DNA from: Candidatus Omnitrophota bacterium
GTDB taxonomy: Bacteria; Omnitrophota; Gorgyraeia; Zapsychrales; Fredricksoniimonadaceae
DNA length: 42,771 nucleotides
Assembly: GCA_015233335.1 (NCBI GenBank)
Contig: JADFXX010000014.1
Location: forward strand, 1 to 42,771
Direction of reading: 5' to 3'
Each line of letters opens with the position of its first letter. Position 1 is the stretch's first letter. Below are positions 4,066-42,771 of this stretch, piece by piece. The translations under genes and the position numbers were made by a program. A model generated the notes under the pieces. The model ran no database searches. It saw only the letters and a list, made by a program, of their open reading frames with translations, and was not told the origin of the DNA.

Positions 4066-4089
4066 AAATAAAATATTCCCAGTATATCA

Positions 4090-10109: not shown

Positions 10110-10138
10110 ACTATACCACCCTTTCAAACCCCTGTCAA
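10110..10138 (-). promoter_or_regulatory. sigma70 promoter of the pyr operon
   Basis: TTGACA-17 nt-TATAGT with extended -10 TG; the -35 box lies in the last codons of the upstream CDS. Confidence 0.75.
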
Positions 10139-12848: not shown

Positions 12849-12948
12849 ATTAGGCGGACCAAAAGAATATCTCGTAAAATGCTTAAAATAATGAAGTTAC
12901 AGCCTTACTAAAAAAATTATAATCTCCCGGTAAAATTAAATCGCATTA

Positions 12949-12976
12949 AGATCCTTCGGCTACGCCTCAGGATGAC
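12949..12976. repeat. Intergenic REP-like palindromic element
   Basis: AGATCCTTCGGCTACGCCTCAGGATGAC, nearly the reverse complement of 12008..12034; followed by a partial AGGATGACA copy. Confidence 0.75.
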
Positions 12977-25475: not shown

Positions 25476-28400
25476 TCAAGCTACGGGAGAACTCGCCTCT
25501 TCTTTTAAACCAAGAAGCATCCTCAAATTTGTGACCGGGAGAATAGATTCTATCCTAAACTCAAGCCCGTCAAATCCGCTGTGCTTGATGCGCTGTATCA
25601 TAGAGCGGTCAAACTGCATTTGCACCCCATTGGCATCCTTCCTGATATTCATCTGCATATTGGCACGGTTTAAATCGATACCACCGACCTCAGAAGGATT
25701 GCCATGCATGGCCTCATCAAGTTTTGCTTTCAAAGCCTTTCTTTCTGCACGGATACGGCTGCGATCGATCAACTTGGGCTCCATATTCTCCAAATCACCG
25801 ATCAGTTCATCCCAATTGTATGGGGTCCCGTCCAAAACCGTCTTCTTATCGCGCAAATCCTTAATGTCAACATCAATCGGATGCCGCGTCGTAAAAACCT
25901 CCCCCTTTGTGGTAAACAGCGTCCCCAAAACATCGCCCTGAGCTGTTGCCCCTATTCCATTGGCCGTATGAACCTCGTTAACATACGCATTCTTGGCGAT
26001 CGTTGCAACCTCCCCTTGAATATCACTGGAGACGATCACAACACCATCTTCGATGGTGATCTTATTCACCCCAGCGGGCGGCTTGATATCTAAATACGAA
26101 TCCTCGATACGTACATTATTTCCGATCACAAGCTCAACTCCTGCCGGAACCTTGATCTTACTATGCCGGATCACGTGTGTCCCTGTATAGCTGACCTGGC
26201 CTTCAATAGTTACGTCCGGCGCAACATCCCCCTGCAGGGGCCGGCCAAATAATCCGTTAAAAATATCTTTCATGTCCCCTTGGGCAGTTCCTTCATCCAA
26301 AATGCGCTTGGCTTCGGCCGGAGACCCTGCATCTGCCCATACAGGTCCAAAATCCACTCCGACCATACCCCCAGCCATTTTCTTGACTTCCTGGGCTAAA
26401 TTGTACAGATCTTCCCAATCCCGTTGGGTGTATGTTGTCGCTCTTTCTGCCCACACGTTTAGATCAGTAGTGTCTACGGTCTGCCCCTTCTTTGCTGCTT
26501 TATCTTGCGCGGCTGCCAAGGTTTTCCTGGCTGTTGCCCAATATTGATCCATCCATTTTTTCTTACCGGCTTCATTGGCCGCATAGCTCATCGGCGTCAA
26601 GATGTGCCCCGACCAGTCCGGCAAACTGTTAATCGGAAACTTGCCCGGCTCCAGCTGTCTGGCCCAAAAACTGCCATTGTTCTTTTCTGTAGGTCGCGAA
26701 TAAAGCTCGACCATCTTTTGCATCACATCCCGCCTGATCGTAAAATAGAACGTATTGGCGTAGGTCTTTCTTCCGCCGGCATCTAAAATTCTCTTGACCT
26801 TTGCGGCTAATGCGCTATTTTCTACCATTAATCGCTGCGCCTGTTCCTGCGCATTTCGCCATTCTTCTCGGGTCATCCCAGAAAACCTATCTGCACGCTT
26901 CCCAAAAAATTCTTTGTCCTTCTCCTTCTTTGTTTCTCCTTTAAAATTCCATACATCTGCCTTGACCACAAACGGTAATAACTGCGCGGCTAAATCTTCC
27001 CCTGCCAAGCTCATATACTTAAGCAGTTCTGCGCCTGCGGCTTGGCTCGTGATCCCCGCTACCTCGGCCTTCCGAGCGGCTTCATCTTCATTCGCATTCT
27101 CTAATGTGTTGCCCAATATTTTATAATTCAACTCCCACAAATCCGGCTTCTCAACAAACCCGTTGGGTTTCACCCTTCCCTCTTTATCTAATAACATCTG
27201 ACCTAAATCTGCTAATCCATACTGTACGGCAAAACCTTCTTCCAAAGCCGGGGTTCCCTTCGCATACAGATAAAATCCTTTTTTCCCGCTGTACTGCTTA
27301 AACATCTCTGCTCCCGGCAATATGACATTATCGCAGGGTACTACCACAAAATACTCCCCCGCAGGCAACCCATAGGCCAGCGCCTTCACCTGCTCAATTC
27401 CCTGCTCCAGCAATGACCGGCCATACAACACGATTTCGCCTTTGTTCCCGGCATTGACCGTTAACGATGCCGCACGAGTACCGCCGCCCGACTCCAAAGC
27501 GATCAAATGCACTCTGACCTTCCCCGCTTTGATATCATCTTCACTCATTGGAGTGGGAGCTAACTCATTTAATATTTTCTCTGCCAACGGCATAACACCC
27601 GGCACATTCCCCCAGTTATGTATGCCATCCGGTACCGAATATGCCCTCAAATATTTTGCCTGTCTAAATATTGACCCCGGATGTTCTGCATAATTTCTCG
27701 CGACCTCTGCCATCTCCTCTGCCGCACCGGCTCTGCCTTCCAGTCCTAATCCCTGAATCGTGATCCCAACCTCTAATTTCCCATCCTTGATAGCTTGCTC
27801 TTGATCGCCATTCATAATTGGAACCATGTTTAACGCGTCTTGAAGGGGTTTCGCAAGCATCGCCTTTTCGCCGCCTGGTATATTAACCGGTACTCGAGCT
27901 ACAAAGGTGTGTTCACTTCCCGGAAGTTCAGCTCCCACTGGCAGGCTTTGATGCCGTTTAATGACCTTTGACGGGTCACCATCAGGATAGACCTGCAGAC
28001 CGCCAGAAAAATACTTCCTAGGCTCTGTAGTTTGGGTGTTTTGGTCTGTCTCTTCTTTAATATAGTTGAACACCCCCTTCTTGTAAGCCTGTATATAGCG
28101 TTGAAAAATCTTGTCCTTCTCTGCCGGGTCATTGGCATTAATACCTACCTTGACCTTGCTTTGGTTACCATAGACCTGAGTTAAAAGAGCATCTTTAAGC
28201 GCCATCTTATACCAGCTGGCTAAAATCATGGAATAAAACATTTGCCGCAAAGGAACAAAATTAGCCCCTTGATTGACTTCCTTTTCAAGTTCAGGAAGGA
28301 CAACTTCACGCAGGACCTGAGAGCTTAAAGAATGCGAATTTTGAGTTTCATCACTATTAATATGCTTGCTAAGCGCCTTATAATCCTCTTCCAACATGAC

Positions 28401-29015
28401 TTTCAAATGGGAACCTACGATAAAAGCTGTCTGTCCGTGCTCATACACATCCGCCCTCTCTGCTACGATCCAAACCTTGTTAAATGTGTCAACAGGAATG
28501 TTAGTGGTGCCGAATTGCTGCTGGGCTTTTGTATAGACCTTGTCCCAAAATGTCTTACCTAAATTCTTTTCCGGATAGATCAGCGATGCAGTTAATTGTT
28601 TGAGGATATAGTCCTGCGCCAACATATCCCGCCCCATCTGTGTCTGCCCCAAATTCTCTGAAATCATCCTGTCCTTCTCATAGGGAGACAGGTTGACCCA
28701 TAGGTCCTTTTCCGGCACCGTCATGGCCGCTAAGAAATACTTGATCAATTTCGTGGATTGCTCCTTTAAGTAGGAGCTGTTATTCGTCGCTTTAGCATCG
28801 TTACCGGCATCTAGAATAAAGTCAAAAAGAAAAGGATTTTCAGGATGCACTTTAAGCCCTTTAATTAGGAGGGGTTCAACCGCCGGACTTAAACTGATCA
28901 TGGTTCCGGGAGCAGGAAGTTGGGAAACCGCTTGAGCATAAACCCTGCCAGGAGGACAAATCATACCTGCAACAAACGTAAGAAGCACCCCGAACGAAAT
29001 GACGCGTTTAATCAT
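25476..29015 (-). CDS. Secreted modular protein: signal peptide, conserved N-domain, sugar-1-phosphate nucleotidyltransferase-like cargo with beta-helix, GGIDL C-domain
   Basis: Signal peptide ..VYA|Q; N- and C-domains paralogous to 10124..12748; LESGGGTR..L....NKG, VPCD, EKPD, WADAG, hexapeptide repeats. Confidence 0.88.
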   Translation of the reverse strand: MIKRVISFGVLLTFVAGMICPPGRVYAQAVSQLPAPGTMISLSPAVEPLLIKGLKVHPENPFLFDFILDAGNDAKATNNSSYLKEQSTKLIKYFLAAMTVPEKDLWVNLSPYEKDRMISENLGQTQMGRDMLAQDYILKQLTASLIYPEKNLGKTFWDKVYTKAQQQFGTTNIPVDTFNKVWIVAERADVYEHGQTAFIVGSHLKVMLEEDYKALSKHINSDETQNSHSLSSQVLREVVLPELEKEVNQGANFVPLRQMFYSMILASWYKMALKDALLTQVYGNQSKVKVGINANDPAEKDKIFQRYIQAYKKGVFNYIKEETDQNTQTTEPRKYFSGGLQVYPDGDPSKVIKRHQSLPVGAELPGSEHTFVARVPVNIPGGEKAMLAKPLQDALNMVPIMNGDQEQAIKDGKLEVGITIQGLGLEGRAGAAEEMAEVARNYAEHPGSIFRQAKYLRAYSVPDGIHNWGNVPGVMPLAEKILNELAPTPMSEDDIKAGKVRVHLIALESGGGTRAASLTVNAGNKGEIVLYGRSLLEQGIEQVKALAYGLPAGEYFVVVPCDNVILPGAEMFKQYSGKKGFYLYAKGTPALEEGFAVQYGLADLGQMLLDKEGRVKPNGFVEKPDLWELNYKILGNTLENANEDEAARKAEVAGITSQAAGAELLKYMSLAGEDLAAQLLPFVVKADVWNFKGETKKEKDKEFFGKRADRFSGMTREEWRNAQEQAQRLMVENSALAAKVKRILDAGGRKTYANTFYFTIRRDVMQKMVELYSRPTEKNNGSFWARQLEPGKFPINSLPDWSGHILTPMSYAANEAGKKKWMDQYWATARKTLAAAQDKAAKKGQTVDTTDLNVWAERATTYTQRDWEDLYNLAQEVKKMAGGMVGVDFGPVWADAGSPAEAKRILDEGTAQGDMKDIFNGLFGRPLQGDVAPDVTIEGQVSYTGTHVIRHSKIKVPAGVELVIGNNVRIEDSYLDIKPPAGVNKITIEDGVVIVSSDIQGEVATIAKNAYVNEVHTANGIGATAQGDVLGTLFTTKGEVFTTRHPIDVDIKDLRDKKTVLDGTPYNWDELIGDLENMEPKLIDRSRIRAERKALKAKLDEAMHGNPSEVGGIDLNRANMQMNIRKDANGVQMQFDRSMIQRIKHSGFDGLEFRIESILPVTNLRMLLGLKEEASSPVA

Positions 29016-29151
29016 TTTTATAATCCTTTTTTAGAAATTTTTAAATTTAAAACTGGGAACACCAATACACATCCACTTAATTGAAGTATAACATATGGGT
29101 ACATCAAAAAACAAATCTAAATGCTCCCGCTGTATAAATTTTTATACAGTT

Positions 29152-29508
29152 TTATACCCCCCACCATTTCTCCTTAAATTGCCCGGAACAGTTGTCGCTG
29201 ATATACTGATACACCCTGTCTTTATCCTGTTCCGAGATTTTGTTAAAAAACATGCCATAAACATACCGTCCCTGTTCTTCCTTGACCCAGGGCAAATTGA
29301 CCTCGACTTTCATAAAATCAAAATTATCATCAAGGGACAAAGACATATTAAGGGGTTGTTCTTGGGGCAACTGTCTGTCAAAAGACGCACACATCCCTTT
29401 CAGGTTTATGTCTTCGATCACACAGTGACTGAATCCCTGCCTTTGGGGCAGCCAGACCTTTGCTTCTTTTTTAACCTGCCAGCGCGGCAATTGTCTGCGT
29501 TCGTCCAT
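29152..29508 (-). CDS. Single-domain PilZ protein
   Basis: RRQLPR (RxxxR) and DINLKG (D/NxSxxG-like) motifs, YGMFF; AAAGGAG Shine-Dalgarno. Confidence 0.88.
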   Translation of the reverse strand: MDERRQLPRWQVKKEAKVWLPQRQGFSHCVIEDINLKGMCASFDRQLPQEQPLNMSLSLDDNFDFMKVEVNLPWVKEEQGRYVYGMFFNKISEQDKDRVYQYISDNCSGQFKEKWWGV

Positions 29509-29527
29509 ATTGTTTCTCCTTTCTGTT

Positions 29528-32500
29528 TTAAAGAATAAAAAATAATATAAACGTATTTAACATATAAGAAATACTGCATACAAATACGGTAATAAAAATT
29601 TGATGAATGCCCTGTAATGTAGCTATGTCGACTAGGATCCTCCTTTCCCTCAGGGTAATAATGACCTTCGTCACATTGATCAAAATGACGAGTACCCGGT
29701 GCAATAACATCCTTGTAAATATCCAAAACGGATAATTTATGAATGCGGGTAAAATGAGAAATAGAGGGGCTTTATTAAAATTCCAAAAAGTCTCTCGGGG
29801 TTCATAAGCCGATCCCGCGCCTTCTCTGATCTCAATCTTTACAGGCCTTCTAAAACAAAATCTGGGTCTCCGGACTTTTTTTGACTTAAATGCCGGCATC
29901 CATAGTGTCGGCTGATCATCTGTCCAAGGCCAATACTGAATGGTTATTAGAATATTCCTTAATATGGACATCGGTAGGAATTTGGGTCTGATCATTGTCA
30001 CAGGCATCGCGTGGATCCGCACTTGTGCCGATGACAGTCTCCGGAATGTAACAAGATAAGGATTAAACGGCCACCTTACTATCATGACAAGGAACAGCCA
30101 CATCAGCGCTAGTAACAAGAATACAACCACCAGAATTTTGATTCTTTTTTCACTTTTCTTCTCATGGTCCTTATCAATGCTCTTGGCCGATTGACAATCG
30201 GCCATCGCTGGAATTCCGCCCCGTTCAAACTTGTGAAGATTATACCGGTTGTGATACCCGGTTAACGCCTGCACGCTTGTTTGGCGCACATCTCTGATGA
30301 TTAAGGGAAGCTTCAGTTGCAAAGCCTCCCAAACACCAACATCCAGTGGAAAGCCCCCAATGTCAACTATCGTCTGTTTTAGAATAAAAACTCTATAGAT
30401 GAGCCTTAAAAATTCTCCAATAAGAAGAACATGGAACACCAGATAATAAAGCGCATCCGCTCTAAGGGCGAAGAACAACAATCTAAGTTTCTGCAGGAAG
30501 GTGGGGGCCTGCCAGGCATTGGATACGGTGTTATAAACCTGCGTATGTGCTCTGACAAATTGCCATGGTGAGCTGCGGATACCATTGGCATGGGTACGGC
30601 CGTTCTCTTGTTTATAGGCATCCTGCCAAATAAAATTCTTAAACGCCCCTTCAAATCCTTCCCTGCCTTTTAATTGTAAAACATCGGCAAGCGCCTCTTT
30701 GCAGTCCGGCAGCATGGCCACGGGATCCCCGCTGACCTTCCCTGCCAGCAACGTACGTATCCTGTTTAATTCCTGGGCAATATCCTCTTTCTCGGTTTTA
30801 GGAATATGCCTATGATGCTGCTTAAAAAGTCTTTCTGCTTCCTGGGCCTCGATGTTGGCCCGCCCCAGGTCAAGCTCTGAACCATGGTAGGGTTTGACCA
30901 ATTTCCCAATGAGAATGATCTTCCGGCGAATTTCTATATCGAACAGATCACCCTCTTTGGCTTTTTGTTCATCAAGGCTAAGAACGACAAAATCTTTGGG
31001 CGTATATTCTCTTTTATCATCAAACAGTGTTACGGGAACTTTCAAGGTGTTTGAAAGTTTCACTAAAACCGTCTTTGACGGATACTGAAGATACGCATTC
31101 TTTTCAATGCGAAAGATCGTACGGCTTGCAACACCCGATCGCAACGCAAGCTGCGGCCGGCTTAACCCAAATAATGCCCCACGCAAATAAGCTAATTTTT
31201 CACCTAATGTCGAAAAAGCCCTGACAGTTTCTCTAACAGGCTCCAAAACTTCCTGAAGTTCATTTTTTCTTAAATGCTCTTCTCTAATATGCAATGCCCG
31301 GGACAATCCTGACCATGTTTTGTAATTCAAAGTCTTAGCTTGGCCATTCTCAATACGAACGATTGTTTTAGGGCCAACACCGGCCGCTTGGGCCAGCTCG
31401 GGTTGACTCAATCGATAAACTTCCTTTCGTAAATACTTCACCTTTTGGCCCAATGTCTGCATTTTCTTAACCTCTGCCAGCTGTTGAAAACTAAGAGAAC
31501 TTTGCTCAGGGATAAGGTCATTGACCTGCACTTTGAAGGCTTTAGCTAAAACTTTAAGCGTCCTGTTATAGGGTTTACGCTTACCCCTATTATTTTCTAT
31601 CCATGAGATCCGCCTTGCAGTTAATCTCGTCTTCTGTGCAAGTCCAAGCCTTGTCCAATGAAAAACACGGCTGCGCAAGAAATAAACTCTTTCTCCGATG
31701 GTTTGTAATTGCCAAACCTGAGGAAGAAAAGCACGAACTTCAGAGATCTCCAAGGTGGGAAGATCTTCCTTCTGAACTTGGTCAAGCATAGGAGGGAGCA
31801 AAACTTCTTGCGGCACATGAAATACTGCTGCCAATTTCTCAATAGTCCATGGACGTGGCTGGGTTTTAAGATAACCGTTCTCAATCGGCTTTAAGACTCC
31901 GGGCCTTAACCCGGCGCGGTCTTCTGCTTCCCTGCGGGTCCATTTAAATTCCCGGCGCAGTCGGCTCACACGGCCGGCCATTGTTGGCAACTCTCGCACT
32001 TCCCCAAGTGTCCTCTCATCAAGAGCTTCGCGCTCAGTAGGTACCATGTCCTTTTCTGTGATGCCAAAAGCCCCGCATAACTTGTCAATGGTATCAGCCG
32101 ATGGCTTAGTTTTAATGCGTCCTTGCTCTATTCGGACGATCTGGTTTTCCGAAACCCCCGACCTCTCAACCAATTCCCGAATCGTCCAATTACACAGTTC
32201 ACATCGAAGACAGGACACCCGGCCTGCTAATGAAAAAACCATGTTGGCCCATCGACGATTGATGTCTTGATGAAGCTGTAAGGCCGCTTCCTTTGTAGCA
32301 GCTGTTTTGATCTGGTCATAAATGCGAGAGTAATACTCCTCATGCTTATCAGGCGGCATCCATGTGATATAACCGTGCGCTTTAATAAAATTTGATTTGC
32401 TAAGCCTGCCCGAACGAATAAGTGCATTTTCCGTGAGCGGTGCAGTTTCAAGCATAATCTGTTCCGCCAATTTCTTGTCACCTTGTTTCAGGGCCTTTTG

Positions 32501-35500
32501 GTATAAGATCCAATGATGTTTCATCATGCCCGGCCCGCATTGCTTCTTTAACATTTCTTTGTCCTTGGTCATTTCGTTTGCACAGGCCATGGCACTTTCT
32601 ATCTCTCCAACGAGACCGGGCAGACCGGCGTCATAAGCTTGACTCAAAAGGTCGCTCATTTTATTTTCTGCCCGTTCATGTTGTCCGTTCTTCGAGCACC
32701 ATTGGGCTTTCATGAAAGCCTCATGCAATTGATCCTCCTTCGTCGGCAAAACCTCACGACGATTGTCGCCGGCCAAAACATCTTTCAACGCCAATTCAAT
32801 TCCTAGCATCTTCCTATAGGCCGCGACCATTTCCCTGATCTTCTTACGCGAATTTAACACCCGTTGACTATTCCATTCTTCTATTTCTTGCAATGTCTCC
32901 GGGCCTATATGAAATTCTTCCGCTGCCCCACATAGCGTAAAACCGCTGCAAACACGCAAAAGCGCCATCCGTTCTCCCGGATGGCAGCATAATTTCTCAA
33001 ATGCTTCTTTCAAGGACAATCCTGTCCAAATGTGTGATATATCCACCCCCAATTCCACAGATCCTTTAAAAGCGTAGAACGCCTTGCGCATGCTTGCCGG
33101 GATATATTTATTAACACTTCGTAAATACAAACCAGACAAATAATCCGCTCTCAATTGGCAACTCTGTGCAATCCTGACCGGGTCATCAATCCCCGCTTCC
33201 AGAATCATGATCTCCCATCGTCGCGGTAATTGACGTTTGGCCTCCTCCAAATTTTTTCCTGCGGTTTCTCGTAATGCATCCATAAAAGACTTGTTCAAAT
33301 AAATGTCACAAACCCCCATGTCCAATTTAAAATAGTCCGCATAGAAACGGACAATCCTTTTAAACAAGGACCGCTGATAGATCATGCGTTCCCCTCTTTC
33401 ATAGGGACCCAACGTCGCAACACCTATTTTCGCTGCCATTCGCTCCATCGTCAGGCCATAACACAGACGCATCAATTCCAGACGTTCCCCATAATGAGCA
33501 CAACCTGACCGCAAGGATTTTATTAATCTTTGTCCCGTCCAGAACTGGCTAATTTCAAGGCCTAAGCCATACGTCAAATTTATAAAATTAATGAACTGTA
33601 ACGGATTCTGGGGCTCGTAAGGTCTTTGGGGATGCCTGGAAAATATTTTTAAGGACTGCCTGCATAACCCGGCGGCACAAGACAGATCGTCAATGTCGTC
33701 AAACCCTGTTTCATCGGCCAATATTTCCAGTCTCTGCTTCATCTGTGCTTTATTTTCAGTTAACGTCGGCCGGAAAGTGCCTTTTAGTCTCTGGTCCGCC
33801 GTACAACCCGCTCGCAGGTGGGCCGCTTGCAAAGATATCCCCAATTCATTTGAGGCCAACCTGATGAATTTCAAAATCAGATTTCGGCCAAAACGCCGCT
33901 TTCCGGCTAAAACAGCAGAAAAATTCTTTTGAGCTCCTATCTGACTGCCTACCCAATATGCGCTTCGTCCTTTGCCTTTCAACAATAGGCATAAAAACCT
34001 CATTCTTCCTAATTCATTGGGTAATCTTCTAAGTTCGTCCCAGACAGTTGATTGCAGGGCTAGGCGTTCATTTTGTTCATCGGTGTTTTCTGGATAGCAT
34101 TGCGCAAAGCCATCATGAAGGATATTGGTGACAAGCTCATTATCATCAATAATAAAAATATAAGAACGACTGTTTAGCTTAAAGTTAACTGCTTTAACGA
34201 CAAGATCCGGCGTGCAGGTTGTGCAATATTTTTTAATTTGGTCTATTAATAAAGGGGGTGCACGAGCTATGATCGTCTCTTCAAGTTGTTGGGCGATTTG
34301 CCGATCATGAGCGCATATCCAAGCTGCTAAACGTTGTTGCAGTGGTGCATAATTTTCATCACTGCGCTTAATATTGGAAATTGAACCCCTATTCTGCGCA
34401 GCATAGCCCTCAAGGATTTCACACAATGCTGCTGACTCCTCATCTGTCCTTGCCCTATTACTGCGCGCAGGGTCACCAACTTGAATCGCAGGTCGCCAAC
34501 TGCGGCTTACATCTCTTTTCGCTACAATATAAATTATTGTATGTTCTTCAATCTTCGAATTAATACCTCCTGCTCTCCGACGGGCTGTCCCGGACTCGAC
34601 TTGGCGGATTTTAGGATCCCTTCTGAGCAGTGAAAAGCCCTCTTCTCTAAAGAACTTTCTTACATATCCTTCAATGATCCTTGCATTCTTGACTGATTGT
34701 GGATTCTCAGGGAACACTGTTGCTCTGAAAATAACTCTGGATGTGGGTTTAAGGAATTGACCGACATTCTTAAAAAAGGTCTCAACATGTTCCCTATAAT
34801 TGTATATATGCCCGTCTTGCACTGAAACATCCCCGCCGTCTATCGGGGAAGGAGTAAAGACAATAAGATCAAATTGCTTGCCTGCAATTCCCTTAAATAA
34901 ATCACTCTGAATAAACTCCGAACGTCCAGCAGCACTGTCCACTCCTAACCTGCTGGCGTTTTCTTCGGCGCACATCAGAGCCTGAGGCTTAATATCAGTG
35001 AAAACCACCCTCTGAGCCCCTTTTCTTAACATAATCAGCCCCAGCACCCCTGATCCTGTCCCCAAGTCGAGACATTCGCGTCCGGATAAATCTTCAGGAA
35101 GTTCCCGGGCAACCCAACGCGTCAAAACAGGGCTTGGGGCATAGACATCATGCTCTGAAATAATATCTTCTCCCCCCAAGTCCCCTATATCTATACGCAA
35201 TCTCGCCATCTTCCTCGTTTTATTGCTCTGGGGCAGATCATTTCTGCCTTTGTCTTTCTTTGTACGATGATAAATCTTCTGACGGGTCCCTTGATCTTCC
35301 CATTCTTCCACTTGCCGCGACATACGAGGATCATGATCATACGCATACTTCGCGCCGAGGCGGGCGGCGACGGGCAGGTGTTTAGTCGCCAACCTATTCT
35401 TTGATTTGATTTCTTTGTACTGTGCTAGATTTATCTCACCTCTTGCAATCCGCTGGGCGTGAAAGCGGTCATTGCCTTGGGGGATGATACGGATAAGTTG

Positions 35501-38500
35501 CGGCAAATCAAAATCGATCACAAAATCTGCCTGATTCTTAAATTTTTGTAATTTCATCTGCAAGCCAAACTTTGACAGCATGATATTAGGTAATACTCCC
35601 AGCCACTCTCTTAGGTCTGTCATGACCTTTCCGTCTTCGTTCCAAAAACTTAGCCCGCTCTCTAAAAATGCCCCCGCAACCAATTGAACCGGCTGACCGA
35701 GGAGCCCTGCAATGCTCTCAATGCCGCAGCAGGTTGCGATCTGGAGGACATCTTCAACTCTATTACTTCTGCGACGGGGATCATTACCGTTAAACCTGTA
35801 GTGCAACATTTCCTCTAAAGCCCAAGGGGAGAATGCCTTCATATTATCTGCGCTAAATTTCTCACCCCTCATCAGATTGACACGCACCTGCATAAATAAA
35901 GCTATCTGAGCATTCTGTTCTCGGGTTCTTTCATAAGAGGGGATCCCTTGGTGTAAATCGCGCAATTCGCCCAATGCTCTGAGATATTCCGGAGTCCTGG
36001 GCTTGCCGGCAATTTCATCTGGATTAGAATGATCAACGCCAATTACGGGTTTATTTTTTTTCTCATTTCCGGTATTCCGGTAATCTTTAAACGCCGCATC
36101 AAGTTCACTGACATCACGAACGGATAATTTACTCATAGCGCTCAGGGCAAGATCTTCCCAACGCCGGTCAATTTTCTCAACAATCTCGCCTGCACTCATC
36201 CCTGCAATAATGTGCCCTACCACCTGTTCTTCTAACTCTGATAGAATAGCCCTTTGCTGACGATCTTGCCCGCCTGCGTCTATGCCCGAAAGGTCTTTGG
36301 GCTCACGGGAAAGGGCCTCTTTAATTGAAGGATGCGCCTTTGTTGATTTCGATACCGCTGCCCAGTCACGATCCTCTGTTGAAAGCACAACGAGCTCATC
36401 TGCAAACCGGCCGAGAGCTGTCAAAAAACCGCGCTCCTGTGCGTCTCTGCTAGAAAGAGATTGTGCCAGCTCTCCAAGCCGCCCTTCTGACCGAGCACGA
36501 TCCTCCAGATCTTTTGCGCTAATTGCTTCCCCTCCCATTTCTTCTAATATTCTTTCTGCGTCATCCATTAATTCATTGCTAAAGTTTCTAAAATTCCTGG
36601 TGACTGCAAACACAGCATCACGTTTTCTTAATAATTCAGCAAAGCGTCTATCCACATAATCCGCAGTGATCCCTATCCCTTTGAATTTGTCTTCATGATC
36701 CACAACGTTCTTGACCATCTCAGAAATACCGTCAACGAAACAAAGGTCATTAAAGATGCCGGTTAAAATGATGTTCTCCCAGAAGATCTCTGCCATATGT
36801 CTGCTCAACGGCGTAGACTGAATCCAGCGGTTCCGATCAAGCTTCATCCTGTTAGATACAGCCAATCCGTTAAGATATCTTTTATAAAGCTCGTAGGCCT
36901 TCTTATACGCATAGTTTGTCAACTCAAGCAAATGACCGTCCCTATTGCCGCCTGCTTTTCTCATCTTTTCGAAGTTAGCTGCTCTCATTGCAAACACAGA
37001 TGCTGCTCTTAACATCTTGTGAAGTTTCCTGGCAGTGCTTTCTTCATGTCCGTTGACAAGCAGGTCCACCAAACGGGATGATAAAAGTTGGGTTCCCCGT
37101 TCTATCGCATCTTTCAACTCCTCATCTCCTCTAAGATCAAAGTTATACCTATGTAATTCCAGAAGCAGCTGATCGGCGACTACATAGGTCATCCTATCCA
37201 TTAACGAAAGAAGCTCCTGTCTTGCCCTATTTTTCTGATAATTATCACCGGCCACATAATAAGCCGCTAATAACGGTATATCTCCCAAGCCCGCACTAAC
37301 ATACGAAATATCCGTCCCAGAAATTCTTAATCTTGCGATTTGCCGGCCTATATCTGCAATCTCAGCCGATACCGGAGCGTGGTCATCAAGTTGAGTAATT
37401 TCAGGGATCTCAAATCCTGTCTCGCGACTGCGCCGCTGCTCATCCTGTCTTATTAAAATCCCTAAGATCACCATGTCAAGGGCATTATGCCTGCCTTGCC
37501 GCCATGCCGTATAGGCTTCTTCCACTTTTTGATTTAAAGAATCATTTACCGACCCGGACATCGCCATCAGTTCGTGGACAATCGCTCCGCTACCATAGTA
37601 GGTGTCTTTCCTGACACACGGCTCTAAAAGGTTAATCCCAAATTTTGGGCTCGCATGAGCTTCAAAGATATGTTTGCCGCCTGGAGCCCTTAGAACATTA
37701 ATCGAGCGTCCGTTTTCTTTGGCTAACAATTCCCTTAAAATTTCCGCTGGAGGTTCATACTTTAAAACATCTGTAAAAAACTCCCTGATTTTTCCTGCCT
37801 GCTCATATTCATTGGGACCATCTCCATAGACCCAACCCGCATTTGGCTTCAATTGCCCTTCCTCATAATGATCCGTAATGCATTCATCAATTAGAATTTC
37901 ATGCAGTTGCCATTTGATACCGGCTGGAACATTTTGGGCGCGCAACACCTCTGCAACAACGCTTGTCTCGTTAATGCCATATTGCGGGAAGCGGACAAAA
38001 ATAGCCCTTATTCCGGCAATCTGCTGCGGGGTATAGTCGCCTGTGTTGAATAATTCTGAGAATGTCAGTTTGTCTTTCCGTGCATTATATTTGTGCCAAT
38101 CCCTGTCAAATACTTGTCGGTTTTGAGAGCCTCGAATGAAATTTCTGCACGACGGGCAGAAATACAAATTATGGTCATTGTCCCTAACACGCTCCCTGAG
38201 CTCATCAAAAGACCAAACCTGATGCATAACACAGGCCCGATCGCGGCAATGGGGCCCGCCTTTTTCATAAAAGAAAGGTCCCCCGCGAATGGGCGCCCTT
38301 AAGCCGGCCCTCTCTTGGGTAAGCTGATGTTCCGCTTCTTTTTCTGTTAAGCTGGAAGAATACGGATGCCCTTCGAGATACTTATGGCCCAACTCATGGG
38401 TGATCAGATGAGAAAGACAATACATCCTGTATAAGAGGGATTCTTGCGTATATCTGTCGCGGGAAATTTGGATCACTCCTCCCGTTGCAACGCCAAAAAT

Positions 38501-41500
38501 AAAATTATAATTCTCAACCGTTATATCCCTGTTGTAAAGAACTACGGCGATCTCATCCTGCGGCGTCTGACAATAAAGATAGGCTTGCACTGTCGGCAAT
38601 CCTGCCCCGCGAGGCACTTGGGGCAGATACATATTCACCTGTCTGTTTAAGACGATCTGTCCTGCAGCGTTAAGGGAAGCGTTCATAAGGCCCTGCAGGT
38701 TAGGCCACTTGACAAAGACATCTCCCCCATCGACCACTTCCGGCACCACCTGCAAGTTCACCTTAAAGACCCTTGAAATCTCCCCCATCAAGGCAAGCTT
38801 TTCATCACGGGGAAATCCGTTTTCATAATAAACAACGATCCGTTTGATTTTATGACCAAACTTTTGTGCTCCGATGCAGGCCGCTGCACTCAGATGTCTT
38901 ATCGCTGAATCATTCGATTTAATTTCTCTAAACTGCGATAAATTAAGCCCTTTTCTTGAAACTCGCTGGGCATGGAACTGATTGTTTCCTTGCGGGGTAA
39001 TGTGAACAACTTTCGGAAGGCCAAGATCGATCACTAGCTCCGATTGATATTTGAGTTTGTATAATTTCATCTGCACTCCGAACTTAGACCGCATGATCTC
39101 CGGTAAGAGATCAAGCCACCGTCTAAGGTCTGTCAGTGTTTTCCCGTCCTCATTCCAAAAATTCAAGCCTCTTTCTAAAAATACTCCTGCCACTACCTCT
39201 TTGGGTTGATTGATAAGTCCAGCAATGCTTTCAATGGCGCAACAGGTTGCAATCTGAGAAACATCCTTAACTCCATTAGGCCTTCGTAGATCATAAGCAT
39301 CCGCCAAAAGTGTCAAAAACTCACGGGTAAATTTAGGACCCGAGCGTTGGATCACAACAAAATTCCTTAAGAAAGAATCAATAGCGTCATAATAGCCGCT
39401 TAGCGGATGACCGTTAGTGTATTGTAAAAACACAACCGCAGGGTCTTGGGCGTTAAACTTTTCTTTTTGTAGTAAAAGTAGCTTCTCTTTAGGAACCTTG
39501 CTCCAATTCGTCATACAGACCCTCAAATGCAGCTCTCGATCCGTCAGCGGCATAAAGAAGAAACGGTAGGGGCGTTGTGGCTCTTTAGTTTGCGGCGCCA
39601 TACGCAAGGCCTGACCTCGGATCTCCTGGAATATCTTTCGACGATGAGGATTAAATTTCCCTTCCAGGAATTCGAAATAAGAACGGCTCATGATAAACTG
39701 TCTCTCTGCGATCGACGGGGTCATGACCGTATCGCGGGCATACATGTTCGCTAATACCCCCAGCCAGGCATCTGCAATATGCCTTTCTCCTGCATCTTCG
39801 GAGTGTACAGAATTGGACCCATCGATCACAATCACATGCGGTCGGTGTATAGCTATATAGCACGCTGTTTTTTCGTCGATCCATTGAGGATCCAGGCAAA
39901 ACTGATCTTTATGCATATCACGGGAACTAATCCTTGCTTCAACAAACTTCATTGCCGGCAGATGTCTGCGAAGGATTTCTTTCCCAAAAATGCCCATGGT
40001 ATGGTTTAAAACGACAAGTAATTCTCTTCCCTGTGATTGTTGCTGCAATAATTTTAATGCAGCAATGACCCGATCTGTTTCAATAAAAAATTGCGCCATG
40101 GCCAAGCGCTCTTGGGATATGAAGTTGCTAGTTCCTGTAGCCCTTAGCCACTTGTTGATCATCATTTCGTATTCCTTATAAGAAATCCCTTTATGCAAAT
40201 CAATCGGCCATTGCCTAAGGCTGTCGATTAATAAAAGATACCCTAACGCCCTCTCGCGCGTGTCATTGTAGTCAACCAAACCGCGTCGCATCATAGCATC
40301 CAGTCGCGGTAAATATCCCCGCACGGCCTGTATGCCATTTTGAGCTACAAAATTTCCAAACATTGTCAAGGCCTCGGCATAATGGCTCTCATCCGAAGAT
40401 TCGATCATCCGCCCGCATAAAGAAAGAGCACAAGGTGTACAGCGCGAGTCAAGAGACATCACACGAGAGATGACCCAAAGATAGGTCTTCTGGGCATCAT
40501 CTGTACACTCCTGCTCGATAAACGTAAATATATCCCCCCTCATCCGTCGGACATTATCCCAGTTCCCCAAAGCTGCTTGTCTTTTAAACCAATTGACCAG
40601 CCGGTGCGCCAGCTGGCTACGCATAGACTTGCTTTGCTCAGTGCTATTGATGCTTCTCATGATCTGCAACGGATCTCCACCATCCTCAGACTGACCCAGC
40701 AGCGTCTTGATCTCTTCAATAGAGGAGAAATCATGATCAGGCCTTGCTTGATAAAAAGCTGCCTGATATCCAACGGCCACTGCCGCTTCAACATTCATTT
40801 GAACATCATCGACAAATAAAATATCCTGTGGGGTGAAACCGTCAAGCGAGAGGATCCCAAGGACTTTTGAGAATAGGTCCGCTTGAGGTTTTTGATATCC
40901 TAATTCAGATGACAGAAAAATATATTTCTCATCAATTAAATCCCCATATGTATCCCGCAGCATCCCACGCCATATGCCCTCATCTTTACGGAAGCGATTA
41001 GAAAGTACCCCTATCTTGATACCGCCCGCTCTTAAACCCTGCAGTGTCCTCAAAGCTCCGGGTGCTGCTATACGCGGCCCTGTTATGATAGACATCCATT
41101 CTTCAATCGTTAATGTCCTTCGTGCGCCTTTATCCGCGAGTCTGGCGTTAACTTGGTTCATATAAAGCGCTTCATCGATCCTTCCTATAAGCAAATCTTC
41201 TCTTATTTGCTTACCCTGCCCCAAAAGGAAAATGTACCGATATAAGAGACCACTGTCTATCCTGACGCCCGTCTTTTCTTCCAGTAGGTCAGAAGCCATT
41301 TTACGGCGTACGGCTGTCTCGGGCATCTGGAATAAAACTCCATCCAAATCAAAAAGAACAATCTTCCTGCTGACCATGGCCATGACGCCGTTAGTGAAAA
41401 AAGCCTGTTGATTGTAGATGCGATGCGCCTTAATCGCCGCCTCCGGGCCTTCTCTACGGGTTAAATAGATCCAATCGAGCGCTAGATGGAAAAGTTTTCT

Positions 41501-42769
41501 CTTCTGCGCTTCTGAAGGGACTTTGCATTCGATATTTCTATTTTTAACAACAATAACTTCCGGCTGACCATTACGATTATGCGCGTCCACAAATGCCTGG
41601 GCCAGTTTCTCCGGCGGTTCACGGCTGTTTTGATCCCCAAAAAACTTTTGTTCACAACGTGCGGCCTCATCAAATAATCTGTCAAGCGCTTCCATATCCC
41701 CGCTGTCTCTGGCCTTAAGCAGCCCTTCATGCCTTCGGGGCAGCATGGCTGCCGTAGACCCAAAGGGCTTGATCACTTCCTCTAATATACGACGGAGATC
41801 TTGCTTTTCACGGTTGCGAAGCATCATCGGCACAGCACGCGCTTCTCTCTGTTTTATTGTGCGGGGGCATAGACGTTCAAATTCTTTGAATGTTAATTTT
41901 GATTCTATGCCTCGGGAAAAATCACTAATAATGTCTTCGAAAATCTGAATTTTGCCTTGAGGCAGATTAGAGTAAAGACATAAGCGAAGATATTCTATAT
42001 CGGCCTGATGAATCGATGCGATACTGCCTCTAATGGACTGAATAAACAACCTTAGCGTCTTATACTGTTGCCCATAAATACATAGCAAATCTTTTCTTGT
42101 AAGAGGGATCGCTTTGACGCGATTAATGTCCCAAGCACGGATTTCACCTTCTGCGTTAAGTCCGGTTTCATAAATAGCAAAATCTTTATCATAAAGGCCC
42201 CTGGACCACATGGTGCGAACAAACTCAATATAGTCATTCAGATACCTTTTGATCAACCGGACTTTGGCATCCTTTTCTTCCAAATCGATCCTATTTTTTC
42301 CGTCTAAGAATACTATTGACTTGGACAGCCAATCAATAATATTTAACAATGACGACATCTGGTACTGGACTATCAAGTCTTTGGCAAATCTTTTTTCTTT
42401 GCCTCTTTGATAATAAACGTTACGCATTAAGAATGTTTTAGTGAATAATCTGCCCCCATACTTTCTGGCAAAATAAAGCCCTTGTCGAAGATCTTTGGAC
42501 ATTCTTTGGCCGTTACGGGGTTTCTTGATAACGATCAGAGTTTTTGTCCCATCGATATTGATGTACGGTCGGCCAGACATTACAAAAACCTCACTACCCA
42601 ATTGATAGGGCAGGGGATCAAATGTGACCATGGCCATGACGCCATTAGTGAAAAAAGCCTGTTGATTGTAGATGCGATGCGCCTTAATCGCCGCCTCCGG
42701 GCCTTCTCTACGGGTTAAATAGATCCAATCGAGCGCTAGATGGAAAAGTTTTCTCTTCTGCGCTTCTGA
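29528..42769 (-). CDS. Giant multidomain protein (>4,413 aa, 5'-partial): kinase-like, HAD, two Cys-protease-like, Zn-metalloprotease, LuxR-like HTH, SAM methyltransferase, XRE-HTH array, C-terminal TM segments
   Basis: Frame stays open beyond the ATG at 42637 to the window edge; motifs DLDGVL, QIATCC (twice), HELGH..HC...CVM..FCPSC, LDLGTGSG, repeated G.R...LR....T..LA..G.....I..IE.G. Confidence 0.9.
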   Translation of the reverse strand, partial: SEAQKRKLFHLALDWIYLTRREGPEAAIKAHRIYNQQAFFTNGVMAMVTFDPLPYQLGSEVFVMSGRPYINIDGTKTLIVIKKPRNGQRMSKDLRQGLYFARKYGGRLFTKTFLMRNVYYQRGKEKRFAKDLIVQYQMSSLLNIIDWLSKSIVFLDGKNRIDLEEKDAKVRLIKRYLNDYIEFVRTMWSRGLYDKDFAIYETGLNAEGEIRAWDINRVKAIPLTRKDLLCIYGQQYKTLRLFIQSIRGSIASIHQADIEYLRLCLYSNLPQGKIQIFEDIISDFSRGIESKLTFKEFERLCPRTIKQREARAVPMMLRNREKQDLRRILEEVIKPFGSTAAMLPRRHEGLLKARDSGDMEALDRLFDEAARCEQKFFGDQNSREPPEKLAQAFVDAHNRNGQPEVIVVKNRNIECKVPSEAQKRKLFHLALDWIYLTRREGPEAAIKAHRIYNQQAFFTNGVMAMVSRKIVLFDLDGVLFQMPETAVRRKMASDLLEEKTGVRIDSGLLYRYIFLLGQGKQIREDLLIGRIDEALYMNQVNARLADKGARRTLTIEEWMSIITGPRIAAPGALRTLQGLRAGGIKIGVLSNRFRKDEGIWRGMLRDTYGDLIDEKYIFLSSELGYQKPQADLFSKVLGILSLDGFTPQDILFVDDVQMNVEAAVAVGYQAAFYQARPDHDFSSIEEIKTLLGQSEDGGDPLQIMRSINSTEQSKSMRSQLAHRLVNWFKRQAALGNWDNVRRMRGDIFTFIEQECTDDAQKTYLWVISRVMSLDSRCTPCALSLCGRMIESSDESHYAEALTMFGNFVAQNGIQAVRGYLPRLDAMMRRGLVDYNDTRERALGYLLLIDSLRQWPIDLHKGISYKEYEMMINKWLRATGTSNFISQERLAMAQFFIETDRVIAALKLLQQQSQGRELLVVLNHTMGIFGKEILRRHLPAMKFVEARISSRDMHKDQFCLDPQWIDEKTACYIAIHRPHVIVIDGSNSVHSEDAGERHIADAWLGVLANMYARDTVMTPSIAERQFIMSRSYFEFLEGKFNPHRRKIFQEIRGQALRMAPQTKEPQRPYRFFFMPLTDRELHLRVCMTNWSKVPKEKLLLLQKEKFNAQDPAVVFLQYTNGHPLSGYYDAIDSFLRNFVVIQRSGPKFTREFLTLLADAYDLRRPNGVKDVSQIATCCAIESIAGLINQPKEVVAGVFLERGLNFWNEDGKTLTDLRRWLDLLPEIMRSKFGVQMKLYKLKYQSELVIDLGLPKVVHITPQGNNQFHAQRVSRKGLNLSQFREIKSNDSAIRHLSAAACIGAQKFGHKIKRIVVYYENGFPRDEKLALMGEISRVFKVNLQVVPEVVDGGDVFVKWPNLQGLMNASLNAAGQIVLNRQVNMYLPQVPRGAGLPTVQAYLYCQTPQDEIAVVLYNRDITVENYNFIFGVATGGVIQISRDRYTQESLLYRMYCLSHLITHELGHKYLEGHPYSSSLTEKEAEHQLTQERAGLRAPIRGGPFFYEKGGPHCRDRACVMHQVWSFDELRERVRDNDHNLYFCPSCRNFIRGSQNRQVFDRDWHKYNARKDKLTFSELFNTGDYTPQQIAGIRAIFVRFPQYGINETSVVAEVLRAQNVPAGIKWQLHEILIDECITDHYEEGQLKPNAGWVYGDGPNEYEQAGKIREFFTDVLKYEPPAEILRELLAKENGRSINVLRAPGGKHIFEAHASPKFGINLLEPCVRKDTYYGSGAIVHELMAMSGSVNDSLNQKVEEAYTAWRQGRHNALDMVILGILIRQDEQRRSRETGFEIPEITQLDDHAPVSAEIADIGRQIARLRISGTDISYVSAGLGDIPLLAAYYVAGDNYQKNRARQELLSLMDRMTYVVADQLLLELHRYNFDLRGDEELKDAIERGTQLLSSRLVDLLVNGHEESTARKLHKMLRAASVFAMRAANFEKMRKAGGNRDGHLLELTNYAYKKAYELYKRYLNGLAVSNRMKLDRNRWIQSTPLSRHMAEIFWENIILTGIFNDLCFVDGISEMVKNVVDHEDKFKGIGITADYVDRRFAELLRKRDAVFAVTRNFRNFSNELMDDAERILEEMGGEAISAKDLEDRARSEGRLGELAQSLSSRDAQERGFLTALGRFADELVVLSTEDRDWAAVSKSTKAHPSIKEALSREPKDLSGIDAGGQDRQQRAILSELEEQVVGHIIAGMSAGEIVEKIDRRWEDLALSAMSKLSVRDVSELDAAFKDYRNTGNEKKNKPVIGVDHSNPDEIAGKPRTPEYLRALGELRDLHQGIPSYERTREQNAQIALFMQVRVNLMRGEKFSADNMKAFSPWALEEMLHYRFNGNDPRRRSNRVEDVLQIATCCGIESIAGLLGQPVQLVAGAFLESGLSFWNEDGKVMTDLREWLGVLPNIMLSKFGLQMKLQKFKNQADFVIDFDLPQLIRIIPQGNDRFHAQRIARGEINLAQYKEIKSKNRLATKHLPVAARLGAKYAYDHDPRMSRQVEEWEDQGTRQKIYHRTKKDKGRNDLPQSNKTRKMARLRIDIGDLGGEDIISEHDVYAPSPVLTRWVARELPEDLSGRECLDLGTGSGVLGLIMLRKGAQRVVFTDIKPQALMCAEENASRLGVDSAAGRSEFIQSDLFKGIAGKQFDLIVFTPSPIDGGDVSVQDGHIYNYREHVETFFKNVGQFLKPTSRVIFRATVFPENPQSVKNARIIEGYVRKFFREEGFSLLRRDPKIRQVESGTARRRAGGINSKIEEHTIIYIVAKRDVSRSWRPAIQVGDPARSNRARTDEESAALCEILEGYAAQNRGSISNIKRSDENYAPLQQRLAAWICAHDRQIAQQLEETIIARAPPLLIDQIKKYCTTCTPDLVVKAVNFKLNSRSYIFIIDDNELVTNILHDGFAQCYPENTDEQNERLALQSTVWDELRRLPNELGRMRFLCLLLKGKGRSAYWVGSQIGAQKNFSAVLAGKRRFGRNLILKFIRLASNELGISLQAAHLRAGCTADQRLKGTFRPTLTENKAQMKQRLEILADETGFDDIDDLSCAAGLCRQSLKIFSRHPQRPYEPQNPLQFINFINLTYGLGLEISQFWTGQRLIKSLRSGCAHYGERLELMRLCYGLTMERMAAKIGVATLGPYERGERMIYQRSLFKRIVRFYADYFKLDMGVCDIYLNKSFMDALRETAGKNLEEAKRQLPRRWEIMILEAGIDDPVRIAQSCQLRADYLSGLYLRSVNKYIPASMRKAFYAFKGSVELGVDISHIWTGLSLKEAFEKLCCHPGERMALLRVCSGFTLCGAAEEFHIGPETLQEIEEWNSQRVLNSRKKIREMVAAYRKMLGIELALKDVLAGDNRREVLPTKEDQLHEAFMKAQWCSKNGQHERAENKMSDLLSQAYDAGLPGLVGEIESAMACANEMTKDKEMLKKQCGPGMMKHHWILYQKALKQGDKKLAEQIMLETAPLTENALIRSGRLSKSNFIKAHGYITWMPPDKHEEYYSRIYDQIKTAATKEAALQLHQDINRRWANMVFSLAGRVSCLRCELCNWTIRELVERSGVSENQIVRIEQGRIKTKPSADTIDKLCGAFGITEKDMVPTEREALDERTLGEVRELPTMAGRVSRLRREFKWTRREAEDRAGLRPGVLKPIENGYLKTQPRPWTIEKLAAVFHVPQEVLLPPMLDQVQKEDLPTLEISEVRAFLPQVWQLQTIGERVYFLRSRVFHWTRLGLAQKTRLTARRISWIENNRGKRKPYNRTLKVLAKAFKVQVNDLIPEQSSLSFQQLAEVKKMQTLGQKVKYLRKEVYRLSQPELAQAAGVGPKTIVRIENGQAKTLNYKTWSGLSRALHIREEHLRKNELQEVLEPVRETVRAFSTLGEKLAYLRGALFGLSRPQLALRSGVASRTIFRIEKNAYLQYPSKTVLVKLSNTLKVPVTLFDDKREYTPKDFVVLSLDEQKAKEGDLFDIEIRRKIILIGKLVKPYHGSELDLGRANIEAQEAERLFKQHHRHIPKTEKEDIAQELNRIRTLLAGKVSGDPVAMLPDCKEALADVLQLKGREGFEGAFKNFIWQDAYKQENGRTHANGIRSSPWQFVRAHTQVYNTVSNAWQAPTFLQKLRLLFFALRADALYYLVFHVLLIGEFLRLIYRVFILKQTIVDIGGFPLDVGVWEALQLKLPLIIRDVRQTSVQALTGYHNRYNLHKFERGGIPAMADCQSAKSIDKDHEKKSEKRIKILVVVFLLLALMWLFLVMIVRWPFNPYLVTFRRLSSAQVRIHAMPVTMIRPKFLPMSILRNILITIQYWPWTDDQPTLWMPAFKSKKVRRPRFCFRRPVKIEIREGAGSAYEPRETFWNFNKAPLFLILPAFINYPFWIFTRMLLHRVLVILINVTKVIITLRERRILVDIATLQGIHQIFITVFVCSISYMLNTFILFFIL
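35345..35758 (-). repeat. Internal repeat copy 2 (QIATCC module) in the giant protein
   Basis: VEDVLQIATCCGIESIAGLL...FWNEDGK..TDLR.WL..LP.IM.SKFG.QMKL...PQGN..FHAQR, matching 38860..39271. Confidence 0.9.
38860..39271 (-). repeat. Internal repeat copy 1 (QIATCC module) in the giant protein
   Basis: VKDVSQIATCCAIESIAGLI...FWNEDGK...PQGNNQFHAQR, matching 35345..35758. Confidence 0.9.
41371..41517. repeat. 147-bp direct repeat, copy A
   Basis: Identical to 42625..42771 except one synonymous base (41390 G versus 42644 A); offset 1254 nt, in frame. Confidence 0.95.
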
Positions 42770-42771
42770 AG
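42625..42771. repeat. 147-bp direct repeat, copy B (runs off the window end)
   Basis: 146/147 identical to 41371..41517. Confidence 0.95.

Follow-up and report, generated by a model that had tools for sequence, protein, structure and literature searches.

A giant membrane-anchored multi-enzyme gene whose tail probably lies in a Candidatus Omnitrophota contig, and the repeated module with conserved Ala-Met edges that it carries

A single open reading frame of 4,413 codons has been found on the minus strand at positions 29528..42769 of the 42,771-nucleotide (nt) stretch of DNA that was analysed here as a whole and is called the window below (GenBank contig JADFXX010000014.1 of the Candidatus Omnitrophota bacterium assembly GCA_015233335.1; contig C5 of this genome, here G000, which consists of 38 contigs and 1.85 Mb). 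By translation, the frame has its stop at 29528-29530 and stays open up to the contig end. It is a genuine coding sequence, the C-terminal 4,413 codons of a far longer gene, and the whole gene probably exceeds 18,000 codons. With good confidence we read the frame as the tail of one giant membrane-anchored multi-enzyme gene, in which the five places marked by an Ala-Met (AM) dipeptide in a first-pass annotation of the same DNA are all edges of one repeated helical domain of about 125 residues (hereafter, the module). That annotation had described a giant mosaic of unrelated enzymes, proteases and DNA-binding units with the 5' end missing; the stop-free length and the Pfam domains bear out the mosaic, and the frame open at the contig end, the missing start. 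New here are the true extent of the gene, an array of five Xre-type helix-turn-helix (HTH) units in its tail, and a domain family specific to giant frames, which combines conserved edges with a protease-like residue set.

At its end the contig repeats part of its own sequence, as might be expected if the frame were an assembly chimera or a decaying pseudogene array read through by chance. Positions 41371-41517 and 42625-42771 form a 147-nt direct repeat with one mismatch, and the final 127 nt of the contig repeat internal sequence exactly. Ending within an exact repeat is the signature of an assembly break, and such a break at the repeat is, judging from the sequence, why the window contig ends where it does. 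As the terminal repeat differs from the internal one by one base, it represents a second real copy. Moreover, 13.2 kb of the window and 41.7 kb of the contig discussed below are stop-free, which at 46% G+C cannot be chance; the base composition is even along the window, and the domains are intact, with scores above the Pfam cut-offs. The C-terminal architecture is also shared by another genome of the same genus, where the frame G010:C29 ends in a last module copy, a short charged linker, a membrane segment and a hydrophobic, basic tail of about 190 residues; since the two have this make-up in common, the odd-looking tail of the window frame is coding as well. Given the stop-free length, the even composition and the same-genus tail, the frame is real, and a chimera, a possibility raised in the first-pass annotation, or a pseudogene array is most improbable.

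The same 147-nt repeat accounts for one of the earlier observations, that the peptide GVMAM occurs twice: both occurrences are present, but as a product of the direct repeat, one in each of its copies. For these near-identical copies, recent duplication or gene conversion is the best explanation. The homology between them ends at the domain edges, with unrelated flanks beyond, and hence the duplication or conversion necessarily stops there. Other internal repeats of the protein were detected by self-BLAST in 250-residue pieces.

The preceding part of the gene most likely lies on contig C7 of the same genome. A single frame of 13,915 codons, open at either end, spans the 41,746 nt of this contig. 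At the protein level, its final 47 codons show 91% identity with window residues 341-387, and the DNA similarity begins exactly at GCC ATG CTx CC (encoding A-M-L-P), is patchy for about 40 nt and then near perfect up to the end of C7. In a profile search, the end of C7 corresponds to module positions 24-75 and the start of the window frame, to positions 97-162, while the module is found in no other frame of genome G000. As the two contig ends are complementary parts of one module that is absent from the other frames of the genome, C7 most likely runs into the window contig, in phase, across a gap of about 91 nt within the repeated module. With this join the gene would have at least about 18,350 codons, its start still missing; 18,328 of them are at hand in C7 and the window. 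Five module copies would then belong to the gene (Table 1), one of them split between the two contigs. The 5' end of C7 has no terminal 40-mer in common with any G000 contig, and six other frames of this genome that run off contig ends (on C4, C12, C24, C30, C38 and at the end of C1) show no link to it.

The gene agrees in composition with the multi-enzyme class of giant proteins that has been published for Omnitrophota (class 1, Archaeovorin type). Pfam domains of the C7 frame include HEAT, ROK, PPDK_N, PEP-utilizers_C, a second HAD, two LOG-type stretches, APH, GNAT and HATPase_c, and matches to a DOT1-type methyltransferase and a beta-propeller are also seen, both below the Pfam cut-offs. 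At least 13 distinct Pfam families are present across C7 and the window, the highest copy number being the five Xre HTH units. As in the multi-enzyme giants, a single frame exceeds 10,000 codons, the size criterion (C7 alone is longer than that), many distinct enzyme families tile the chain and none of them dominates by copy number, membrane segments are present (about 12 hydrophobic segments in C7 by a crude hydropathy scan), the sequence is unique even within the genus, and contigs of metagenome-assembled genomes (MAGs) are cut inside the gene. The families shared with this class comprise methyltransferase, HAD, ROK, GNAT, HATPase, PPDK_N, LOG-type "lysine decarboxylase" and peptidases. This agrees well with the available text of two preprints: methyltransferase, HATPase, GNAT, HAD and ROK are among the commonest families of the "multi-enzyme" class (Nielsen & Lui 2026, bioRxiv 10.64898/2026.06.07.730766), and methyltransferases, peptidases, PPDK_N, "lysine decarboxylase" and HAD_2 are listed for Archaeovorin (West-Roberts et al. 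2023, bioRxiv 10.1101/2023.11.21.568195). The window tail departs from the multi-enzyme giants in having at least five Xre HTH units; HTH or DNA-binding domains have zero mentions in the main texts of both preprints, and the AM-edged module is not named in their available text.

Giant open frames, of 4,574 to 85,816 codons, are present in many relatives of the order. This trait fits the attribution to Omnitrophota, a phylum cited in the first-pass annotation for its giant proteins, with order-mates' frames reaching the upper value; a comparison of MutS proteins (see below) did not point clearly to any phylum. No ortholog of the whole region was found in 30 relatives, 16 of them from the same genus, when the first 2,900 residues were used as the query; all matches were to single domains.

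The annotation was right about the places of all the flagged AM sites: GVMAM occurs at residues 43 and 461, STAAM at 338 (with its Met codon at 41744-41746), DPVAM at 4015 (with its Met codon at 30713-30715) and GIPAM at 4185. They had been taken for junctions between unrelated units of the mosaic, and this holds in part: the five sites are the edges of one repeated domain, but no AM is present at the boundaries between the other domains (HAD, Cys modules, metalloprotease, methyltransferase and HTH units). The dipeptide is not enriched in the window protein (13 seen, 8.2 expected, Poisson P 0.075). As far as sequence goes, AM is a narrow mark of the two ends of one domain family and not a general junction.

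This family is rare and largely confined to giant frames. With a three-sequence profile it was found in 17 of 150 other genomes of the order, and 28 of the 31 matches outside G000 fall in frames of at least 4,500 codons, eight of them being in one frame of 81,822 codons. Among 1,835,955,588 representative proteins, 31 match the module, the window's own included, and most of these are long or cut by contig ends. No Pfam family covers the module, and none is common to the 20 members scanned. In G065:C1, which comes from a different family of the same order, the C edge of a module copy (locus 1420-1935) is followed within about 20 residues by a HAD-type start (FDLDGV), as in the window. The pairing of a module with a HAD domain directly after it may be conserved across families of the order.

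Conservation was counted over an alignment of 53 sequences (a 20-sequence version was also made). At the N edge, [AG] is found in 48/53 and [ML] in 48/53, with Pro two residues on in 35/53; the C edge reads G-[IV]-[LYF]-A-M, with A in 43/53 and M in 34/53. In the interior, E40 is kept in 46/53, E41 in 51/53, F60 in 39/53, H64 in 53/53, H116 in 50/53 and N120 in 45/53. The Met of each AM might be regarded as an internal translation start or a fossil start codon, with the units made separately: the HAD unit would then begin MVSRKIVLFDLDG, like a free-standing HAD protein, and seven of the ten edges read GCC ATG. The alignment speaks differently, as the N-edge Met is replaced by Leu in 22/53 sequences and the C-edge Met, by L, I, V or T in 16/53. 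Further, none of the ten edge ATGs is preceded by a Shine-Dalgarno-like or AT-rich stretch, while several of 18 ordinary starts in the window have one, and no stops occur anywhere in about 55 kb. Internal starts were rejected because of the Leu replacement and the lack of a ribosome-binding-like stretch at the edge ATGs, and we consider them extremely unlikely.

The AlphaFold model of the module is confident (pLDDT 79, pTM 0.74) and has five helices and a hairpin, and the AM residues lie exactly where order begins and ends. In an exhaustive structural alignment against 48,161 chains, the best two matches are Rce1 (4cad_C; Z 7.4, root mean square deviation (rmsd) 3.2, 107 residues aligned) and SpdC (6u0o_A; Z 6.9, rmsd 3.3, 112 aligned), the third row having only Z 4.9. 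Both are members of CPBP, a family of intramembrane glutamate proteases for which the available part of the source (PMC7542359) describes "three conserved active site motifs" and catalysis by a conserved Glu. Canonical CPBP domains (PF02517) of the relatives have EExxFR, F/WxxxH and HxxxN/D; in the module, EExxR lies on the second helix, FVxxH on the third and HxxYN on the fifth, which is the same order. The likeness thus consists in the order Glu-Glu..Arg, F...H, H...N and in the two best structural matches. The difference is that the module is soluble and highly charged, with a beta hairpin and a variable insertion, and has no integral membrane helices, unlike the CPBP enzymes, which are integral membrane proteins. 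As a member of the CPBP family proper the module was rejected, all sequence tests (PF02517, hhalign) being negative.

Several observations weigh against our reading of the gene and its module. At the level of the gene, the join of C7 with the window is inferred, and the gap may hold further module copies or other sequence. West-Roberts et al. (2023), in the available text, report SecA_DEAD, or a C39/S8 peptidase near the N-terminus, in most but not all giant proteins, and in the 18,328 codons at hand, from which the N-terminus of the gene is missing, Pfam at E<=0.001 shows neither SecA_DEAD nor a C39/S8 peptidase. The best named relative of the genome's MutS comes from a MAG labelled "uncultured Planctomycetales" (57% identity). 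At the level of the module, the edge residues are hydrophobic and may merely pack on the fold, residues 129-130 forming a beta bridge with the hairpin in the model, and Z 7.4 is within the aligner's range for unrelated helical folds. None of 20 module members matches PF02517 at E<=10, and hhalign against 17 canonical CPBP domains gives probabilities of 0.35% and 0.28%, with the HxxxN helix alone aligned. The Glu motif is mostly EExxR, one residue short of EExxxR; the copies are soluble (grand average of hydropathicity -0.7, -0.5 and 0.0; 20-31% charged residues), with a hydrophobic insertion in the last copy only; and in the two young copies of the window the second Glu is replaced by Q and the Arg by F. 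Foldseek against the PDB gave nothing at E<=0.001, and the module profile gave only chance-level matches (E>=0.14) among PDB sequences.

We tentatively consider it possible that the module is an active hydrolase derived from, or convergent with, the Rce1/CPBP proteases; that it also cuts the chain at its own edges seems unlikely. In the strongest form of this idea, which is improbable too, the gene would be a true bacterial polyprotein: the module, as a soluble Rce1/CPBP-like glutamate protease, would cut after its own edges (...[AG]-[ML] at the N edge, G-[IV]-[LY]-A-M at the C edge) and release a histidine-kinase-like block, a kinase-like block, a block of 3,500 residues from the HAD domain to the HTH units, and the membrane tail. 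It would account for a conserved polar set whose order along the helices is that of the CPBP active-site motifs, for both top structural matches being of the CPBP family, and for a like motif kept at both edges in the 53 sequences, at the limits of the ordered model. The HAD domain, moreover, starts four residues after the last Met of the module, like a native HAD N-terminus, a module again stands directly before a HAD domain in G065:C1, and two Cys modules with a weak papain-like signal and an archaemetzincin-like region are further parts of the chain. On the other hand, cleavage is at present a prediction, the CPBP sequence tests are negative and the Z values do not rise above the noise range of helical models. 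The second Glu and the Arg are missing from two of the five copies, the edges diverge past [ML], where the N edge continues with x-P-x-W and the C edge with a small residue, and the modules are irregularly spaced, most enzymes not being separated by them. In the available text, West-Roberts et al. (2023) name cleavage as an open question, with no known cleavage points.

Long chains of unrelated enzymatic units with built-in protease domains are known from MARTX-type multi-effector toxins and viral polyproteins. Release of the units is established for those systems, while here cleavage is a prediction only; no homology with the protease domains of those systems came to light, though no search was aimed at it.

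The main rival to a catalytic module is a non-catalytic helical connector or metal-binding bundle, with the AM residues as structural caps and a chain that is never cut there; we regard it as quite possible. The best Foldseek rows, hemerythrin-like and TetR-type helical bundles (E 0.7 or worse), point in this direction, as do the hydrophobic edge residues, the pairing of residues 129-130 with the hairpin and the failed tests of CPBP membership. For a mere spacer, however, conservation of H, H, N and E-E in 45 to 53 of 53 sequences would be rare. If the module is such a connector, any processing would be done by the papain-like Cys modules or the metzincin instead. The model of the Cys module is confident (pLDDT 81.5), although built from only four sequences, and cysteine peptidases, going by the titles, account for 18 of the 20 best structural rows, including the C39 domains of PCAT1, ComA and LahT-type exporters, staphopains, streptopain, OTU and viral papain-like proteases; yet these matches have Z of 3.7 or less, and the His column shifts among the four sequences.

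Similarity of the Cys modules to C39 and papain-like peptidases thus consists in the best structural rows and in a Cys at a helix start, invariant in 4/4 sequences. They differ in the low Z values and the shifting His, and in having no sequence match in Pfam or the PDB. The best Foldseek matches are parechovirus 2A proteins (E 0.12), and in the language-model atlas the Cys module scores 0.87 or lower. The two Cys/His modules of the first-pass annotation are upheld as two copies with 57.5% identity, but without a His in a fixed column. Beyond G000 they were found only in G010 and G016, again in giant frames.

The zinc metalloprotease of the annotation is likewise retained in part. HELGH, CRDRAC and CPSC make the region archaemetzincin-like, but the scores are below the curated cut-offs: E 1e-7 and 32 bits with NF033823 (cut-off 145), E 0.0064 and 16.9 bits with PF07998 (cut-off 24.4). 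An HExxH motif and a Cys4 site are characteristic of archaemetzincins (M54). Three kinds of protease-like unit, the AM-edged module, the Cys modules and the metzincin, would thus be held by the tail, which keeps the processing idea alive and proves no processing.

In the reading that we prefer, the chain would be made as one membrane-tethered protein, with the module as a catalytic or metal-binding unit set between enzyme blocks. About 5,200 residues, from the C7 membrane segment at 12919-12954 to window residue 4207, would be cytoplasmic, as this stretch has no hydrophobic segment and contains ATP-, S-adenosylmethionine (SAM)- and DNA-dependent domains.

The features of the window part are collected in Table 1. 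Three assignments of the first-pass annotation have been confirmed by Pfam above the cut-offs: the HAD hydrolase (PF00702, 42 bits, cut-off 26.4), with the N-terminal DxD motif of this family as FDLDGVL; the SAM methyltransferase (PF05175, 42 bits, cut-off 23); and the HTH array (PF01381, 114 bits, cut-off 23), in which the iterative search jackhmmer separates five tandem Xre-type units. Its transmembrane segments correspond to hydrophobic segments found by the hydropathy scan only at the very end of the frame, a strong one at 4207-4236 and two weaker ones at 4354-4373 and 4391-4413. Two assignments are not confirmed. A LuxR-like HTH is not supported, with no LuxR/GerE match at E<=1 for the whole protein or at E<=5 for residues 1800-2330. 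The kinase-like segment, residues 49-337, has no Pfam match, and a lead comes from the language-model atlas alone, in which one of 30 neighbour clusters (score 0.94) has PF06293 (Kdo kinase) on 22% of its members. The motifs DP(R)RSNR and SSP, suggested earlier as possible boundary marks, occur only twice and once, respectively. The two exact occurrences of DP(R)RSNR, at residues 2330 and 2766 (about 35770 and 34460), bracket Cys module 2 and the methyltransferase block, and a weaker form, DLRRPNG, precedes Cys module 1.

Table 1. Features of the giant gene in the window (residues are those of the window frame unless stated otherwise)
Feature	Residues	Window position	Strand	Remarks
Giant gene, 3' part	4,413 codons + stop	29528..42769	-	5' end beyond contig edge
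Module copies in the gene (five)	C7 8403-8545; C7 13133-13281; split between C7 end and window start; window 341-465; window 4018-4189
Module copy, C-terminal half	2-48	42625..42771	-	Profile positions 97-162; ends in GVMAM, followed by V; 147-nt near-identical repeat
Unannotated block ("kinase-like", lead only)	49-337	41759..42625	-	No Pfam match; language-model lead
Module copy, full	341-465	41375..41749	-	From AM, followed by LP, to GVMAM; Q at second Glu position, F at Arg position
HAD phosphatase-type domain	469-671	40757..41365	-	PF00702, PF13419; 4 residues after last Met of module
Cys module 1	1162-1317	38819..39286	-	Confident model; weak papain-like fold signal
Archaemetzincin-like Zn-metalloprotease region	~1400-1545	38135..38572	-	HELGH at 1458, CRDRAC...CPSC
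Cys module 2	2333-2492	35294..35773	-	57.5% identical to Cys module 1; DPRRRSNR just before
Class I SAM methyltransferase, HemK/PrmC-like	2537-2688	34706..35161	-	PF05175
Two ~160-residue repeats with divergent HTH-like units	3002-3331	32777..33766	-	HTH_25 at 3272-3325
Five tandem Xre-type HTH units	3515-3913	31031..32227	-	PF01381; jackhmmer
Module copy, last	4018-4189	30203..30718	-	From AM, followed by LP, to GIPAM; hydrophobic insertion between fourth and fifth helix; ~170 residues
C-terminal hydrophobic, basic tail		29531..30151	-	Strong membrane segment 4207-4236, two weaker

Some further observations concern the giant frames. Canonical Rce1-like domains (PF02517) occur inside giant frames of two relatives, G018:C2:306109-306390 (a frame of 39,654 codons) and G024:C1:210626-210919 (85,816 codons); in the former, the domain lies about 950 codons past an AM-edged module copy of the same frame. 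No literature linking Omnitrophota giant proteins with CPBP/Rce1 was found, and neither of the two preprints mentions these proteases. In C7, residues ~8290-8410, just before the module copy at 8403-8545, resemble by eye sigma-70 region 2 / region 4, and this stretch has no Pfam match at E<=0.001.

Adjoining the giant frame, at 25476..29015 (-), is a gene for a protein of 1,179 residues with a signal-peptide-like start, to which no Pfam family was assigned. The sequence ...LDEAMHGNPSEVGGIDLN... at its C-terminus is perhaps what the earlier annotation had in mind as a "D-x-A-M carrier". A paralog of this protein, as judged by eye, is encoded by the frame running off the end of C38, and the one at the end of C4 is CarB-like. 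The frame at the end of C1 (65227..70641, +), of 1,805 codons, has a signal-peptide-like start and many dozens of tandem repeats of about 20 residues, of the type GINWND-(F/L)-GVLSKT. Elsewhere in the window, at 10124..12748 (-), a protein of 874 residues with a long ankyrin-repeat array is encoded (PF12796, 249 bits); such arrays are unusual in free-living bacteria and typical of host-associated ones. Between the giant gene and its neighbour are two short frames, 29095..29538 (+) and 29152..29508 (-), which touch or slightly overlap the stop of the former; the one of 147 residues is probably not a gene, given its odd composition and the lack of a Pfam match.

Whether giant bacterial genes yield one enormous protein or cut pieces is an open question, for which the module provides a concrete candidate: it is short, confined to giant frames, and has a protease-like residue set and a motif at both ends. 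Should it prove to be a self-cutting module, its edges would be the first predicted cleavage points of this class of giant proteins. The tail described here also demonstrates that such a protein can hold a tandem Xre DNA-binding array together with two Cys modules and a metzincin. Finally, one reason why contigs break inside giant genes is the presence of near-identical module copies, and joining contigs through split modules can recover more of these genes from MAGs.

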